Assembly (NCBI GenBank): GCA_951406725.2
Contig: OX597815.1
Span: 68,882,001-68,946,000, forward strand
DNA from: Octopus vulgaris
Lineage: Eukaryota
DNA length: 64,000 nucleotides
Direction: 5' to 3'
Part shown: in pieces, positions 12,236 to 45,233 of the stretch
Layout of the letters: every line of letters begins with the position of its first letter
Position numbering within the stretch: the first letter of the stretch is position 1
Program-made: the position numbers and the translations under genes
The notes under the pieces: model-generated
The model's database searches: none
What the model was told of the DNA's origin: nothing
Seen by the model: only the letters and a program-made list of their open reading frames with translations

Positions 12236-13162
12236 ATAAGCCACAAAATCAAAAAGGATTGAAAATCAGTCCTACAGTTAGTCACCAATTGTGACTGTTG
12301 GTTACCTTTCAAATAGCCATCTGTCTCACTGTTGATGAATAGTAAAAAGTTACAAACTAGTGACTTTTTGCAAACTTTGTGCAGACCTTGAAACTGTTTG
12401 AACTTGAATAGATTTCCTTTCTGTTATTTTCAACACAATCTCTTCATTATGCTTTGTTTACAAAATGATACATTAAACCTGATCTTGCATTAAATTTGAT
12501 AAAACCATGACAATATACCAATTCAGAACAAGAAAAGCTTTCTAGAGATTAGAAAACAGCTATTTCGAGGAGGCTTCTGTAATTGATAGAAATTAGATAT
12601 GAATGTTTGTTTATGGGTCTCTTATATAAATTTAAGAGATATCAACCATGTGAAAAGATAGCATGAGATAGTGATGGTGGTGTTGATAATCATAGTGATG
12701 ATGGGGGAGGTGGTAATGATGGCCATAAATGTGGTGGTGGTGATAATTGTGGTGATGACGAAGCTGTTAATGGTAGTTGCAGTGGTGGAGATAATGATGA
12801 TGTCAATCACATTATAACTAACAGCCCCAACAACAATGCTATCCATCTTTATTGAGAAAAATGATTTAAAGCTATTTACTAATATTTTTCAACAACAGGA
12901 AATCTTGAATAATTATGAGCAGAAATAAAGTTTTGTTTTATTTCTCAGACTCTTATTGTTGATGTCAAGACAAAATATTATCAGCTTTCAAGGGACATAT
13001 TATATTGGATGTTATATAAATAAGACACTCTTATTTTCCAAAAAATGTCCTTTAAAAAAAATCACTCTTTGTATGCTAATTTTTGTCCCCTATGCTTACT
13101 TTTCCCTCTATATGTACTCCTCAAACTGGGGTGTTTAACCCTTTAGCATTTAAACTGGCTAT

Positions 13163-15656
13163 AGGAGACAGGTATATTTAGCCAGAGGGGAAGCAGATAG
13201 GAAAAAATTTGCCAATGTTCTGCGCTGTGAGGTGTTTCATGTTGCAAGACAGTGTGTGAGAGAGAATCATGATGTGGTAGGAAAGAAATATGTTTGCATG
13301 GATGATGGTTCACTTGTGCTAAATGAGGATGCAAAGAGAGAGGTTTGGAGATGCCACTATGAAAGGTTGCTCAACAAAGAGAATGAATGGGATAAAGAGA
13401 GTCTGCCAAATGTCGACCCAATAGAGGGACCAGCTATCCGAGTTGACAGTTCCATGGTAGTTAAGGCAATTAGAAGCATGAAGACAGGGAAAGCCCCAGG
13501 CCCATCAGGAATTACTGCTGAGATGCTCAAAATATCTGGCAGTGTCGGCTATAGCCTAGTCACCCGTATAGTTAACCAGGTGATACACGAAGGAGTCATA
13601 ACCAATGACTGGTGTAGTAGCATAATAGTCAATTGCTACAAAGGTAAAGGTGACGCCCTAGATACAAATAATTACAGAGGTATCAAGCTGTTGGATCAGG
13701 TAATGAAGGTTACGGAAAGGGTCATAGCCCAACTGATTAGAGAGAGAGTCAACCTGGACGAGATGCAGTTTGGGTTTGTGCCAGGGAAAAGCACCACCAA
13801 TGCCATATTTCTGGTGAGACAGTTGCAGGAGAAATACCTAGCCAAAGATAAAACTCTGTTCCTGGCTTTCGTTGACTTGGAAAAAGCCTTTGACAGGGTT
13901 CCCCGTTCCCTTATCTGGTGGTCAATGAGGAAACTAGGGATAGATGAATGGTTAGTGAGAGCTGTGCGTGCCATGTACAGGGACGCTGTTAGTAAGGTGA
14001 GGGTTGGCAACGTGTACAGTGAAGAATTCCGGGTGGAGGTTGGGGTCCACCAAGGCTCAGTCCTCAGCCCCCTCCTATTTATCATAGTCCTCCAGGCAAT
14101 AACGGAGGAATTCAAGACAGGATGCCCCTGGAAGCTCCTCTATGCTGATGACCTTGCTCTAATTGCTGAATCACTATCAGAACTCAAGGAGAAGTTTCAG
14201 GTGTGGAAGCAAGGATTAGAATCGAAGGGCCTCAGAGTCAATCTAACTAAAACCAAAGTCCTAATAAGTAGGAAGGTAGACAAATCTCAAACGCCTTCAG
14301 GTAGATGGCCCTGCTCGATCTGTAGAAAAGGCGTAGGTAGGAACTCTATAAGATGCACAAGTGTAAGCTATGGACACATAAGAGGTGCAGCAATGTCAAA
14401 GGAAGGCTAACTAGGAATATAGTTTTTGTATGTGGCAGATGCTCTGGTGCAATAAACACTGAAAATGCGCAGAGACCATCTTCCGCCACATTCCAGGGAG
14501 AAAAACTAGAAATAGTTGACAGTTTCCGTTACCTAGGTGATCAAGTCGGTAGTGGGGGTGTGTGTGCCGAAAGTGTAACTGCTAGAGTAAGAATAGCCTG
14601 GGCAAAGTTCAGAGAGCTCTTACCTCTGCTGGTGACAAAAGGCCTCTCGCTCAGAGTAAAAGGCAGACTGTATGACGCATGTGTACGAACAGCCATGCTA
14701 CATGGCAGTGAAACATGGGCTGTGTCATTGATGAGGATATGCGTAAGCTCGCAAGAAATGAAGCCAGTATGCTCCGATGGATGTTTAATGTCAGTGTTCA
14801 TACCCGACAGAGCGTAAGTACCCTGAGAGAAAAGCTGGACCTAAGAAGCATCAGTTGTGGTGTGCAAGAGAGACGTCTACGCTGGTATGGACACGTGGTA
14901 AGAATGGATGAAGATAGTTGTGTGAAAAAGTGCCACACCCTAGCAGTTGAGGGAACCTGTGGAAGAGGTAGACCCAGGAAAACTTGGGATAAGGTGGTGA
15001 AGCACGACCTTTGCTCTTTAGGTCTCACCGAGGAAATGACCAGAGACCGAGACCTTTGGAAGTATGCTGTGCGAGAGAAGACCCGGCAGGACAAGTGAGG
15101 CCATAACCTGTGGCCCCTACCTGGGACGTAGTCAGTCCACCTGTGCATACCTTCCTTCTTGGGACACATAACTCTACTTGTGAAGACCTGTTGAGGCAAG
15201 TGAAAATCAAAATCGAAGAATCAAATCAAATCGAAATCGATCCACATCAATGGAATTTGTAGTTTGTGGTACCAGTGCCGGTGGCACATAAGAGAACCAT
15301 CTGAATGTGGCCGTAGCCAGCACTGCATCGACTGGCCTCCGTGCTGGTGGCACATAACAAACACCATCCGATCGTGGCCGTGTCAGCCCTGCTTGGCCTC
15401 CGTGCCGGTGGCACGTAAAAAACACCATCTGAGCATGGCCGTTTGCCAGCCTCGTCTGGCACCTGTGTCGGTGGCACATAAAAAGCACCCACTACACTCA
15501 CGGAGTGGTTGGCGTTAGGAAGGGCATCCAGCTGTAGAAACACCGCCAGATCTGACTGGCCTGGCACAGCCTTCGGGCTTCCCAGATCCCAGTTAAACCG
15601 TCCAACCCATGATAGCATGGAAAGTGGACGTTAAACGATGATGATGATGATGATGA
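13163..15656 (+). mobile_element. 5'-truncated RTE-clade LINE (RT region, 3' UTR, (GAT)n tail)
   Basis: RT motifs KAPGPSG, NYRGIKLL, QFGF, FVDLEKAFD, GVHQGSVLSP, LLYADD, FRYLG, RLRWYGHV, RGRPRKTW; no endonuclease domain; interrupts a P2 MITE. Confidence 0.95.
13232..15098 (+). pseudogene. RTE reverse transcriptase ORF with two frameshifts (~14358, ~14725), including a PHD-like Cys/His finger
   Basis: Three overlapping ORFs (13232-14410, 14353-14817, 14715-15098) join into one RTE protein. Confidence 0.92.
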
Positions 15657-19999: not shown

Positions 20000-20190
20000 A
20001 GGGATAATTCACAAAAAAAACAAAAGATGAAGATAGGTTGTGTAGACAACAAACAGATGTATTTGTATAACGCTCAGGAATAGAAAAAGTCTTTTACGTT
20101 TCAAGCCTACGCTCTTCCACAGAAAGGAACACAGAAAGAAACAAAGAGAGAAAACAAATGTATGTAGTGGTTAGCAATCTATCATGGCGA
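20000..20190 (-). mobile_element. Penelope-like terminal-repeat fragment (family A), HHR-like motif at 20091-20126; duplicate at 21666-21856
   Basis: Minus strand CTTT-CTGTGGA-A-GAGC-GTAG-GCTT-GAAA-CG-TA-AAAG. Confidence 0.6.
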
Positions 20191-20200
20191 ATATATATAT

Positions 20201-20497
20201 ATCACGTGACCGACCAGACCATCAGATGTTGTTACACATCGCTGGTCACAATGCGTTCACATTGTTTTAGCCTTCGAATGACGCCACCCTGCTGGCTAAG
20301 CGAGCAGGCCAACAGAAGAAAGAGTGGGAGAAAGTGTGGTGAAAGAGTACAGCAGGGATCATCACCCCCTGCCGGAGCCTCATGGAGCTTTTTAGGTGTT
20401 TTCGCTCAATAAACACTCACAACGCCCGGTCTGGGAATTGAAACCGCGATCCTACGACTGCGAGTCCGCCGCCCTAACCACTGGGCCATTGCGCCTC

Positions 20498-20498
<1 letters not shown>
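20201..20498 (-). mobile_element. young tRNA-derived SINE (family 3); duplicate at 21867-22164
   Basis: A-box TGGCCCAGTGG, B-box GGTTTCAATTCC, CpG-rich. Confidence 0.85.
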
Positions 20499-20534
<36 letters not shown>

Positions 20535-20823
20535 TATAAATAATGAGGGAGATAAATTAATATTAATGTGTGTATATATATGCATATGTCTACATATGTG
20601 TGTGTATATGTATATGTGTACATATGAGTGTGTGAATATGTATATGTGTATATATGTGTGTATGTATATATATATATATATATATGTGTATTTGGCAGGG
20701 CAAGACTGCTAGGTAGTTGGCCGTATGCTAGAAATAGATCATCAACGATCAAACTACAAAGGAAGTTCTCTAGAGGAAAAATTCAGCGAACACCAGAACC
20801 AAATTTGGCGGGCAGAACAGATG

Positions 20824-20873
<50 letters not shown>

Positions 20874-21261
20874 GATTCAAGGATCAAGGTGTAGGAAGCA
20901 ATCCATAGAAGATATAAAAAACATCTTTGAATCCCCAACATGTTAACACGATTTCCCAACGACAATGTAAACTTCATATAATCAAGGTATCCTTGGGCTG
21001 CAGAGTAGCTTACTGGCTACCTTGTGTTTGGATAAGTCACTACATCTGATTTTCTACTAACTATGGAACATATGTAGCCTGAACTTTATCTACTCCATTC
21101 CATAAGTTTTTGAATATATATATACAGTACATATATTCATACATACATACACATACAGCAAATATTAAGTCTGTATGTTGACATGTTTTGGTCTCCTGCT
21201 GTGTTAAGGAAGTGAATATATATATATAAATACATATATCTACTTTACAACTGTACCATAC

Positions 21262-21552: not shown

Positions 21553-22435
21553 TCAGGCGGTACTGGCAACGGTCACGCTCAAATGGTGTTTTTTATGTGC
21601 CACCTGCACAGGAGCCAGTCCAGTGGCACTGACAACGATCTCATTCAAAAGACATGTATATATATAGGGATAATTCACAAAAAAAACAAAAGATGAAGAT
21701 AGGTTGTGTAGACAACAAACAGATGTATTTGTATAACGCTCAGGAATAGAAAAAGTCTTTTACGTTTCAAGCCTACGCTCTTCCACAGAAAGGAACACAG
21801 AAAGAAACAAAGAGAGAAAACAAATGTATGTAGTGGTTAGCAATCTATCATGGCGAATATATATATATCACGTGACCGACCAGACCATCAGATGTTGTTA
21901 CACATCGCTGGTCACAATGCGTTCGCATTGTTTTAGCCTTCGAATGACGCCACCCTGCTGGCTAAGCGAGCAGGCCAACAGAAGAAAGAGTGGCAGAAAG
22001 TGTGGTGAAAGAGTACAGCAGGGATCATCACCCCCTGCCGGAGCCTCATGGAGCTTTTTAGGTGTTTTCGCTCAATAAACACTCACAACGCCCGGTCTGG
22101 GAATTGAAACCGCGATCCTACGACTGCGAGTCCGCCGCCCTAACCACTGGGCCATTGCGCCTCCACACACACACACACATACATATATATATATTTAAAT
22201 AATGAGGGAGATAAATTAATATTAATTTTAATATCAATTTAAAACCAGAGTCCAGCATACAAAAAATCTGAGAAGTCAGAGAAAATTCTAATATATGTGT
22301 ATATTGGCAGGGCAAGACTGCTAGGTAGTTGGCCGTATGCTAGAAATAGATCATCAACGATCAAACTACAAAGGAAGTTCTCTAGAGGAAAAATTCAGCG
22401 AACACCAGAACCAAATTTGGCGGGCAGAACAGATG

Positions 22436-22485
<50 letters not shown>

Positions 22486-22662
22486 GATTCAAGGATCAAG
22501 GTGTAGGAAGCAATCCATAGAAGATATAAAAAACATCTTTGAATCCCCAACATGTTAACACGATTTCCCAACGACAATGTAAACTTCATATAATCAAGGT
22601 ATCCTTGGGCTGCAGAGTAGCCAGTCCAGTATGGTCCGCACAGCTCGAAGTTAGGTGAATAA

Positions 22663-25419: not shown

Positions 25420-25455
25420 ATGATACCTAGTGTACTCCAAGGGGTTGGTTTTCAG
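25420..25455 (+). CDS. candidate alternative first coding exon (MIPSVLQGVGFQ)
   Basis: Unique sequence 25200-25460; ATCATGA start; strong donor CAG|GTAAGA in phase 0. Confidence 0.4.
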
Positions 25456-25930
25456 GTAAGATTACAGATTTTCTGTTATTTTTCTACTTTGTTTAATTCA
25501 ATTTCGATTTTAATTAAATTTGGTTACTTTTTATTTTAGTTAAATTTTAATTAAATTTAGCATTACTAGAACTATTAATGCTAGTTCATGTATATTAGTA
25601 GTCGTTTTAATTGTAACAGGGCTAGCAGCAGCAAATTGTTAAGTTTTTGCAAGAGAACAGCATGAAAACCACTACAATGCAAGGAAAAATACAAAATTAT
25701 AAATTTATTTAATAACCAAAACAAAAAAAAAAAAAAAAACCAAATAAACAAAAAACAAATGAATCTTTTTCATTTCAGAATTTAAATTTATGATAAAAGT
25801 TGGAGTATTAAATATATTTATTTATCTTAACCATCAGCAATGTGGTGACTTTCATCTTTCTCTCTTTGTTTATATCATTGGGTCATATGTGTATTTTTCA
25901 TTTTTGGTTAATGGCTGAATAGTTTTTATC

Positions 25931-26785: not shown

Positions 26786-27586
26786 AATAATAATAAAAAT
26801 GTTTTCTTTATTAACTAGTAAAGGGTTCACAAAAACATTGGGGATTATACAGGATGATATAATGTGGGGTTACATAAAGGTGCATGTGAAAAGAAAAGCA
26901 ACAGCAATAATATGAATTTCAACAATGACTAATTCCCCTTATAATTAATAATTCATGAGATTCCCCTTGATGTTAACAAGCAGAACCTGAGCTGTCTCTT
27001 TTGGTAGATTTTCAGCCAAAGACAGTAGACAACTTTCAGGAATCTCTCTGACTAGGTAGTGCTATAAGTCTCCTCAGATTGGATATACAAATGGGTCTAT
27101 GCTGAATATGCCCCAAACACTAGCTTAATAATAACAAAGTTATTTTACTAATTTTCTAAATTAATGGAAACAGCAGCTGTGTGTTTTAACAGAAATATGA
27201 CAACAAAAAGTTAAGGACTGTAGGAAATTTGCTGAAAGAGATTTCTTTGGTGTTGTAGAAAAAAGCTGAGTGACTACAAAGAAGTTCTATAGCTGAATGG
27301 CTTATATGATTATTGATCTGTATGTACATGGATATGTGGTTAAGAAGTTCACTTTGCAACCAAATTGGTTTTGGGTTCAGTCCCATTGTGTGGTACTTTG
27401 AGCAAGTGTCTTCTATTATAGACCTGAGCTGACCAATGCTTTGTCAGTGAATTTGGTGGATGGAAACTATGGAAGTCTGTCATGTTATAATATATGTATG
27501 TATGTAGAGGTAGGATGTGCGAGAGGCATAGAGATACATTGGTAATGAGAATAAAGACAAAGAACAGTGAGTCTTACATATGACTC

Positions 27587-27642
27587 TGCATTCTGATGAT
27601 GTCTACCACTACAACTGGTAAATAGAAACGATCGTAAATGTA
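27587..27642 (+). ncRNA. intact minimal type I hammerhead ribozyme
   Basis: Stem I UGCAUU/AAUGUA; core CUGAUGA 27593-27599; stem II UGUCUACCA/UGGUAAAUA; GAAA; stem III AC-GAUC-GU; GUA triplet with predicted cut after 27636. Confidence 0.85.
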
Positions 27643-28485
27643 CTATTACTACCACTTTTATTTACTAATTAATTAAATTAATGACTTACTAGTGCAAACA
27701 ACCAACTTCTTCCTGTTATTTTTCCTCTATTTTCTTCTTGCATATGTATGTATATATATATGAATGCATATGTATGTATATATATATATATATATGTATG
27801 TATGTGTATATATATATATGTGTGTGTGTGTGTATGGGCATCCAGCCATAGAAACCATGCTAAAACAGACACGGAGCCTTGACAGCCCTTCAGCTGGTCA
27901 GCTCCTGTCAAACTGCCCAAGCCATGCCAGCATGGAAAACGGACATTAAGTGATGATGATAGTGTTGGTGGATATATTTATTATGTCACACTGCTTGACA
28001 ATCAGTGTTTGTTTGTTTATGTCCCTGTAACTTAGTGGTTCAGTAAAAGAGACCAAAAAATAAGTGCCAGGCTTAAATAAAATGTATTGAGGTTGAACTG
28101 TTTGACTAAAACCTTGAAATGGTACCCCAGCATGGCAATAGTCCAATGACTGAAACAAGTAAAAAATAAAGGACATGAGTATATCTAAGTGCATAGCCAA
28201 ATGGTCCAGGAGATTGCTTTGCAACTATAAGACCCCAGGTTCAATCTCACAGCAAGGCATTTTGGGTAAATATCTTTTACCAAGCCTTGTGAGTGAAATT
28301 GTGTAAATAGAAACTGTGTGGGAGCCCATTGCATGGATTGTACCTGTAATGCAAAAGATACAGCCTTGTCTTACACACGGTGTCATACTGGTTCTACCTG
28401 AGAATTATGTTAAGGATACCTGTGGAATACTCAATAAGCATAAACTGAAAGAAGTCCTCTCCACCCCTCTCTGTATTCATATATA

Positions 28486-43279: not shown

Positions 43280-43585
43280 TCAATGAATGGTTGAATGACC
43301 AAATCCAAGCTTCTCTGCTAGTTCCTCAACAGTTACGATGAGATTTTGTTCCACCAGGGTTTTCAGGATGTCCTTGTCGAGTTCTACAGATCTTTCAGGA
43401 TGAGGCTCGTCTTCTAGGCTGTAGTTTATGGCTCGGAATTTCTGGAACCACCATTGACACTGCCTTATGCTTATTGTCCAATCCCCATATACTGCATTAA
43501 TATTTCTTGTACTTTCCGTTGCGTTGTTGTCTTTATTGAACTCATAAAGCAAAATATGCCAAATATGCTCCTTTGTTACTTCCAA
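43280..43585 (-). pseudogene. mariner (Mos1/SETMAR-like) transposase N-terminal HTH fragment; element extends to ~43754
   Basis: HILLYEF...INAVYG...QWWFQKFR...SLEDEP...TVEELAEKLG; truncated with a stop, no DD34D domain. Confidence 0.9.
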
Positions 43586-45233
43586 TATAGCTTTGAAAAA
43601 AATAGCTGTTAAAATCGAAATGCACTCTTCAAAACTTGCACTATGAATAAGGACAAGATAAAATTACTACCTGCTTTTTATAGCAAGTTAATATAAGTAG
43701 TTTATCCCATTCCCCTCTGACATTTAGTTCAAGCTGTTGAAAAAACCGCATTATTATATATATATACATACATACATACATACATATACACACACACTCT
43801 CTCTCTCACACACATTTTACATTCTGTTATTGTTTTATACGTTTCAGCCTTGAGGTTGTGGCCATGCTGGATCATGTGTGTGTGTGTGTGTCTATCTGTC
43901 TGTCTCTCTGTATGTATATATGTATATGTATGTGTGTGAACAATAATATTTTCAACAGATGTGTTGCAGATGTATCTGATTGTTCTCAAGCTTCAATACT
44001 GTGTGTGTGTGTATGTGTGTGTGTGTGTATGTATGTATGTATATGTATGTATGTATGTATATGTATGTATGTATGTGTGTATGTATGTATGTGTGTGTGT
44101 ATGTATGTATGTGTGTGTGTATGTGTGTGTGTGTATGTATGTATGTATGTATGTATGTATGTATGTATGTATGTATGTATGTATGAGTGTATGTTTACTT
44201 TATTACTCTCTGGCTATTTACTCTCTTCCAAGAACATTTTCACTCACTCTTATGTGTTAGCTTCCCATACATTTTACTCATGTATCTATCAGCGTCATAG
44301 TCGTCATCGCATTCTATTGTCTACCTGTCAACACACTGAATTAGTTTCACTTTATTCGTAGCACACTGTGTGTGTGCGTTTGCGTGTGGTGTAAACCAGA
44401 CTAAGAAAAGCATTTGACACACACACCAGAATGTGAGTTTTCTGTAAATTTTGCTTAACTGGAGTTTAAATTTTAAAAACTGGACCTGGCATGACGCGAT
44501 GCATTGTACTCTTAAAAATGCAAGGTAAATTGTAATTGAAGAAATCCTATATTGTAGATTTGTATAACTCCCAAAGGGAGGCAGATAAAATCTGTCTTTT
44601 ATAATAAGAGATATATATATTTGTGTGTGTATGTGTGTGTCTACATGCAGTTCTACACATTCCTTTCTCATTGTGTCCTGCACTAAACAAACACATGCTT
44701 TCACAAATGTAAATGCATGCACACACACACACACACTGGAGAGCTAACAATTGCCTCAATTATGCAAAATCTTTAAAACTATGGGATTACGATGATTAGA
44801 TTATTCTACTGATTTTAATTAAAGAATTAGATGAAATTTGTCAGTCATATTTGCCTCACATTAAGCCCTCACCTTCCATACTTAGACATGGGTTATTGTT
44901 GGTGATGATGATGGTAATAATAATGGATGAGGATAATGAAGATAATGAGGATGAGTGGGAGGGAGCTGTGCTGGTTGTGGTAAGAGGAATGAAGATGCTA
45001 CATGTGGCTTGTTAGAGGTGAGGATGGAATAAAATAATGCTAGTAAGTTTTGTTTTTTACATTTTTTGTTAGCGTGGCTGTGTGACACAGATATGGCTGT
45101 GTGGTTATGAAAATTGCTTCTCAACCAAAGGTTTTGGGTTCAGGCCCAGTGTGTCACCTTAGTCAAATGTCTTCTACTGTAGTTAACCAAAGCCTTGTAT
45201 TTGGATGTGGTAAACTGAAATTGAAAAAAAACT

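Follow-up and report, generated by a model that had tools for sequence, protein, structure and literature searches.

Among the Penelope-like retrotransposons (PLEs), the systems closest to the one considered here belong to the Hydra clade, which, in the account of Craig et al. 2021, has a C-terminal EN with a CxCx5C linker and no CCHH (PMC8557442). The same source describes CxxC and CxH around the E and N residues, (TA)n targets, and canonical hammerheads (PMC8557442). As to whether such ribozymes cut, published work reports no cleavage by a single minimal hammerhead of Schistosoma and little by its dimers (PMC4209133); the ribozyme of an anole PLE failed to cut unless the element's protein was present, none of the RNA-seq reads had an end at its cut site, and the template was mainly uncut RNA (PMC11167929). 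The G10.1-C11.1 pair that closes stem II is described as highly conserved, though not obligatory, in hammerheads (PMC4209133).

Here we describe a hammerhead motif in the window, by which we mean the whole 64-kb stretch of Octopus vulgaris DNA that was analysed. The motif is very probably the pseudo-LTR hammerhead of a PLE with Hydra-clade features, carried within a 245-bp truncated and part-inverted insertion, in a copy that is predicted to be inactive. The features to which the text refers are as follows, with the basis of each in brackets.

About 27488-27500, no strand: short TA-rich tract, left flank of the insertion (sequence)
27501..27745, plus strand: whole insertion, a Hydra-type Penelope-like element reduced to its 3' end (pseudo-LTR), 5'-truncated and 5'-inverted (copy comparison)
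27501..27579, minus strand: inverted 5' arm, in which family positions -133..-57, counted from the cut, are reversed (copy comparison)
27569..27586, plus strand: gagtc/gactc hairpin, an accidental product of the inversion (sequence, folding)
27575..27579, no strand: TACAT microhomology of both arms, the inversion junction (copy comparison)
27575..27745, plus strand: forward arm; its end is the main 3' end of the family, at +109 relative to the cut (copy ends)
27587..27642, plus strand: minimal type I hammerhead, predicted cut 27636/27637 (sequence, descriptor scan)
27587-27592 (UGCAUU) with 27637-27642 (AAUGUA), plus strand: stem I, 6 bp, one of them G.U
27593-27599, plus strand: core CUGAUGA (sequence)
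27600-27608 with 27616-27624, plus strand: stem II, 9 positions, with 8 pairs (one G.U) and one C.A mismatch
27625-27628, plus strand: GAAA (sequence)
27628-27635, plus strand: self-complementary ACGAUCGU, predicted to form an 8-bp intermolecular helix III in a dimer
27634-27636, plus strand: GUA triplet, predicted cleavage 3' of 27636 (sequence)
27656..27667, plus strand: putative blocking arm pairing with 27616-27627 (predicted fold); rare substitutions at 27623, 27660 and 27665 complete the helix
27746..27835, no strand: (TA/TG)n microsatellite at the 3' end of the insertion (sequence; the flank type is that of most copies)

Judged by its sequence, 27587-27642 is a genuine minimal type I hammerhead: CUGANGA, GAAA and NUH stand in type I order together with helices I and II. 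It is the single descriptor match in the window, both strands scanned, and 100 shuffles yielded 0 strict matches and a mean of 0.02 loose ones; an Rfam scan of the window at the gathering score gave 0 matches, the hammerhead model included. The canonical core, the 6-bp stem I and the 9-position stem II with one mismatch that an earlier note on this DNA had reported are all found in the sequence, as are its GAUC palindrome and GUA triplet, both within 27628-27636. The stem II pair closing at the core is U-A, not G10.1-C11.1, and U-A recurs in 42 of 43 family copies; the second pair from the core is G.U in the window copy versus G-C in 38 of the 43 family hammerheads, and the C.A mismatch is family-wide (42/43 copies). 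Taken in isolation, the 56-mer is unremarkable in stability (z -0.52) and is predicted to fold hammerhead-like, with probabilities of 0.93 for stem I and 0.55 for stem II.

Comparison of copies establishes the inversion geometry, the anatomy and the family membership of the window copy. Most copies have their counterpart of 27501-27579 immediately before the ribozyme but in the opposite strand sense; the 5' arm of the window copy is thus inverted, and at 9 positions out of 76 its base is not the commonest of the column. The forward arm begins 62 nt 5' of the predicted cut. The earlier note had seen no inverted arm, which is wrong for 27501-27579 and right for the ribozyme itself: the arm stops short of it, so that no antisense arm lies over it. 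The small gagtc/gactc hairpin upstream, which the note had also recorded, does exist at 27569-27586, and we can now explain it as a by-product of the inversion junction, since GACTC occurs twice in the element and one of the two was reversed and placed beside the other. As to its origin, we think it likely that reverse transcription, primed at a (TA)n target from the element's 3' end, passed the uncut ribozyme, that a second priming took place at an internal ACAUAU, and that the products were joined at TACAT, leaving the 5' part inverted. Over 141-172 nt, the window insertion is 92-94% identical to the 3' region of copies that retain EN or RT-EN remnants.

A search of the octopus's own genome with 27480-27760 found dispersed copies on many contigs; 40 of 280 candidates were scored, and the best match of each of these 40 is 76-96% identical to the window copy. 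Sixty distinct hammerhead copies were retrieved, giving at least 60 in the genome, and the exact-pattern matches (35 and 33) have only 14 in common, an overlap which suggests about 80 copies or more as a lower estimate of family size. Among 104 pieces taken from the fetched loci, a few of which belong to a sister subfamily, 52 have 3' ends in the +105..+109 bin (the window copy among them) and 35 end near +249, and 38 have an adjacent inverted piece. Microsatellites flank most copies. The family thus displays 5' truncation, inverted 5' pieces and an optional 3' tail, all of them Penelope-like traits, and on these comparisons the window hammerhead belongs to a dispersed retroelement and is not an element of the host. 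The two fixed 3' ends, +109 and about +249, stand about 140 nt apart throughout the family (e.g., L002:1672-1812), and many inverted pairs combine an arm ending at +109 with one ending at about +249.

The earlier note had also called the hammerhead intact. Its core, stems and palindrome do pass inspection, but there is nothing special in this: all 11 core bases are kept in 43 of the 60 copies, and 22 of the 60 pass a full test of core, stem I of at least 5 pairs, stem II of at least 8 and a perfect palindrome, in a sample that over-represents intact copies, as some were retrieved by patterns lying within the ribozyme. For 17 copies chosen outside the ribozyme, with differences counted against the column-commonest base, core plus stems differ at 39/697 sites and flanks plus loop at 148/2097 (P=0.19), so there is no clear constraint after insertion; the core by itself differs at 6/187 sites and is less diverged than the flanks, in what is a small sample. 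Divergence of the window copy over 27587-27745 is 4.4%, against a median of 6.8% for 54 copies, which makes it younger than the median. By sequence it is a routine pseudo-LTR copy, 4-7% diverged, with many others equally intact. A sister subfamily (L034, L040, L045, L048, L058 and L060) has a CUGAAGA core, the same palindrome, and a stem II of 8 positions, mostly starting with G-C or G.U. Across 43 family and 6 sister sequences, which amount to two lineages and few events, two stem II positions covary fully (G-C versus A-U, C-G versus U-A) and the first pair also changes (U-A versus G-C/G.U); these double-sided changes indicate that stem II structure has been under selection in the element's lineage. 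Among the papers listed in searches of the literature on Penelope and octopus hammerheads, none treats this family, which may already be catalogued in Repbase or Dfam.

The parent element can be assembled from longer copies. One of them, L042, whose 3' region is 92% identical to 27575-27744 of the window, carries an RT remnant (the FDITMG region), EN and the hammerhead in that order on the same strand, so that Penelope-like RT and GIY-YIG EN, recognized by motif and by tblastn, stand upstream of the pseudo-LTR in broken form. In copy L018/L031 a 202-aa frame lies upstream, with some 500 nt between its end and the ribozyme; it carries CGCRDRSKC, a GIY-YIG-like core and C-terminal CxxC/E/N motifs. 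The CxCx5C linker before GIY-YIG is represented by CGCRDRSKC in the family peptide P0001, the GIY-YIG core holds one Cys and so lacks CCHH, and L042 reads C..C..E..N..CLH where the Hydra clade has CxxC and CxH around E and N; insertion at (TA)n and a canonical hammerhead, both typical of that clade, are likewise found. Sister families L061-L064 have open RT-EN frames of 608-908 aa, the longest of which (908 aa) shares 43% identity with the family peptide across 157 aa of EN. At the DKT position, the single family copy with coverage, itself degenerate, has GKT, and sister family L063 has DKT; at the N-terminal RWK mark, sister family L062 has RWR upstream of its ORF. Pfam returned no significant family for the EN peptide and three long ORFs, and a PDB sequence search with the 908-aa sister ORF returned nothing significant. 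Since the family itself shows GKT, leaves RWK uncovered and draws no name from Pfam, the clade rests on motifs and on a by-eye match to the supplementary alignment rather than on a tree, and by these marks the parent appears to be a Penelope-like retrotransposon with Hydra-clade features. A permuted hammerhead of the Naiad type is ruled out by the plain type I order and the C-terminal EN. The frames at L062:2372-4900(-), L063:2379-5102(-) and L064:2493-5081(-) represent a more distant Hydra-type family, with RT-EN of 843-908 aa and Asn-rich inserts; a descriptor scan of about 2.3 kb downstream of these three frames found no hammerhead.

The window copy differs from L131, its nearest natural relative, and from the column-commonest base at three positions within 27580-27680, namely 27623, 27660 and 27665. 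All three substitutions strengthen a single helix, two of them turning C.C into U-A and the third turning G.U into G-C. In the predicted fold, the resulting 12-bp helix, 27616-27627 with 27656-27667, sequesters the GAA (G12-A13-A14) together with the 3' strand of stem II. The minimum free energy structure of 27560-27670, the construct proposed earlier for a cleavage assay, is this non-hammerhead helix, and the blocker reaches a probability of 0.96-0.99 in 27560-27670, 27500-27745 and 27400-27800, with stem II at no more than 0.02; in L131, stem II stands at 0.96 and the blocker at 0.00. The earlier note had described the ribozyme as unblocked, a claim that these folds contradict in silico, in its own construct as elsewhere (stem II 0.01-0.02). 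These are nearest-neighbour predictions, which ignore tertiary contacts, proteins and folding kinetics. On this model, the window copy is likely jammed and not cutting host RNA.

In predictions for transcripts with a progressively longer 3' end at 37 °C, the hammerhead fold prevails up to about 27663 and is gone by 27667; at 20 °C it goes earlier. A short co-transcriptional interval would therefore exist before the transcript reaches about 27663. We picture three substitutions, gained as the copy drifted after insertion, as having perfected a latent downstream helix, which would sequester G12-A13-A14 and the stem II 3' strand when about 25 nt of transcript past stem I have been made. Of the 60 copies, the window copy has the highest blocker occupancy, with 0.40-0.77 in four others. 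When 1500 random triple substitutions were placed on L131 as a null, 101 damaged stem II equally and 1 gave this same 12-bp helix at equal strength, the helix having been chosen post hoc. An exact pattern with the 27623 variant matches the window copy only. No copy was found with most of the window's private variants, so that no subfamily origin is seen for the three changes; L025 has two of the three helix-forming changes without the other private variants.

In the monomer, helix III is only 2 bp, so that cutting likely needs a dimer. The earlier note had allowed that the ribozyme might work only as a dimer, and this is supported: the active monomer fold is predicted at -3.2 kcal/mol, the ACGAUCGU duplex at -10.0 kcal/mol, and the crossed dimer at -21.2 kcal/mol, near the dimer minimum of -21.8. 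In the source element, to judge from these energies and from the published dimer proposal (PMC4209133), two tandem repeats probably paired through ACGAUCGU, building helix III, so that the ribozyme probably worked as a dimer. The descriptor scan found no second hammerhead in the 64-kb window. With no partner there and a predicted blocker, the window copy offers little prospect of activity, and the earlier description of it as the best candidate for an active ribozyme cutting host pre-mRNA finds no support.

Copy ends carry some information on cleavage in the family as a whole. Most copies read through the predicted cut site, which accords with uncut RNA being the main template in the anole. 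Three of the 104 pieces start at 0 or +1 from the cut (L149:1495, L156:1495 and L030:1070). Among the 15 unbiased copies that start between -70 and +5, two begin exactly at the cut (P about 0.016, or 0.058 for 0..+1), and the third copy, outside this set, starts at +1. We take these starts to hint weakly at past in vivo cutting by the family's ribozyme.

The host context was considered over a wider region. The candidate exon at 25420-25455 terminates with a good donor-like CAG|GTAAG. Examined by eye, the 196 window ORFs of at least 70 aa included no identified host exon, in a search that short exons would escape, and neither did 90 filtered ORFs from the window plus 100 kb on each side; for 40 ORFs from both lists, Pfam gave only a zinc knuckle, likely from a retroelement, and one sub-threshold match. 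On the plus strand, T exceeds A in 25 of 28 bins across 264 kb (the window together with L178-L197). Transcription is linked to strand asymmetry, and a T>A skew, uncalibrated here, fits a long plus-strand transcription unit. The locus thus fits weakly with a plus-strand intron or long transcript. Copy orientation shows no bias relative to flank skew, itself an uncalibrated proxy (33 positive and 36 negative of 70, P=0.30). The sequence TTTTCAG|GTAAGAT at 25448-25462 could serve as a donor, or as an acceptor followed immediately by a donor; it resembles, we presume, a recursive splice site of long introns.

Other accounts of the locus have to be weighed against a jammed pseudo-LTR copy. A sense-intronic copy might once have cut or destabilised the pre-mRNA, with host selection then fixing the three helix-zipping substitutions. 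That all three differences within 27580-27680 sit in one helix, each strengthening it, that a single random triple in 1500 on L131 equals its probability, and that T>A in 25 of 28 bins over 264 kb fits a long plus-strand unit all speak for this history, yet the helix was picked post hoc, 101 of the 1500 triples wreck stem II equally, the helix is latent in the family (the four other copies of 60 at 0.40-0.77), and L025 shares two of the three changes. Without selection, a transition at 27623 and then a template switch, by which the left arm was copied over the right, would account for both changes in the right arm, orientation is unbiased against flank skew (P=0.30, 70 copies), and there was possibly nothing to silence, given that the lone minimal hammerhead is reported inactive in the cited experiments (PMC4209133). 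We therefore consider selection for the blocker quite improbable. If true, it would mean that solitary minimal hammerheads cut pre-mRNA in cells and that genomes quiet them through evolved cis-blockers, with the core untouched.

We rate as very improbable that the ribozyme actively cuts host pre-mRNA, whether transiently as a monomer during transcription or in trans, dimerized with another transcript. It keeps all core bases, a 6-bp stem I and a perfect palindrome, the isolated 56-mer folds hammerhead-like in prediction (stem I 0.93, stem II 0.55), and copy starts at the cut (2/15, plus one at +1) indicate that the family may cut in vivo; against this stand the predicted blocking, the U-A and G.U pairs by the core, the 2-bp helix III and the partnerless window, as well as read-through of the cut site in most copies and the host exon that the ORF searches did not find. 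The reported behaviour of the Schistosoma monomer, without cleavage, and of its dimers, with little (PMC4209133), and that of the anole PLE, which needed the element protein and left no reads ending at the cut (PMC11167929), also count against it. Domestication as an intronic hammerhead like those of amniote RECK, CTCL and DTNB, or descent as a retrozyme monomer, would agree with the type I topology and the possible intronic position, but we hold it to be extremely improbable: the motif lies within unaltered element sequence, has about 80 or more paralogues and forms no tandem array, longer copies hold RT-EN coding remnants, and its private changes weaken the fold without improving it. The reading we prefer remains that of a PLE pseudo-LTR copy whose fold has probably since been jammed.

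Elsewhere in the window, 20071-20946 and 21737-22558 form a local duplication about 1.6 kb apart, in which several frames translate identically, and 13154-15098 (plus strand) is a frameshifted LINE reverse transcriptase remnant, which we take to be RTE-like. A frame at 43280-43663 (minus strand) presumably resembles the N-terminus of a mariner/Tc1 transposase.

By itself, the single locus adds little: it represents a further Hydra-type Penelope family, whose hammerhead is the kind expected of the clade. A negative cleavage result with 27560-27670 would be uninformative on the family, since that construct is predicted to misfold. The family's about 80 or more copies, with their fixed 3' ends and a few starts at the cut, offer material on whether PLE hammerheads cut in vivo.

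Compared with known systems, the family shares with the non-LTR retrozymes a type I hammerhead related to PLE pseudo-LTRs, but is the truncated end of a coding element and not a tandem non-coding unit (bioRxiv 10.64898/2026.07.22.740005). With a single copy in the window and coding remnants in the family, the tandem non-coding units of a non-LTR retrozyme are not seen. Like the RECK, CTCL and DTNB hammerheads of amniotes, the window hammerhead is type I and possibly intronic; those, however, are described as conserved across species, whereas the window copy is one of many decaying paralogues (PMC6155905).

The metazoan PLE minimal hammerheads described by Cervera and de la Pena 2014 resemble the family in their long helix II and short helix I, in a small palindromic helix III with a proposed dimer mechanism, and in their mostly solitary genomic copies from truncated PLEs (PMC4209133). 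Unlike the PLE hammerheads set out there, the family has U-A in place of G10.1-C11.1, no clear extra base between A9 and 10.1, and a C.A mismatch throughout in stem II, and the window copy has its predicted downstream blocker (PMC4209133). From Hydra-1_Obim of Octopus bimaculoides it differs in its hammerhead stems (PMC8557442 File S2), which marks a different family, and four ribozyme strings and one peptide string of the families studied here gave 0 matches in the Craig et al. supplement (PMC8557442). An optional 3' extension of about 140 nt also contrasts with the 30-40 bp tail described for PLEs, and Asn-rich inserts between RT and EN with the Hydra clade as described there (PMC8557442). 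The likeness to that clade, Hydra-1_Obim included, nonetheless extends along the element: RT followed by a C-terminal GIY-YIG EN, with CxCx5C and, as in the published description, no CCHH; CxxC and CxH around E and N; truncated, inverted insertions at (TA)n targets; and, near the 3' end, a canonical type I hammerhead whose helix III is short and mostly palindromic (PMC8557442).
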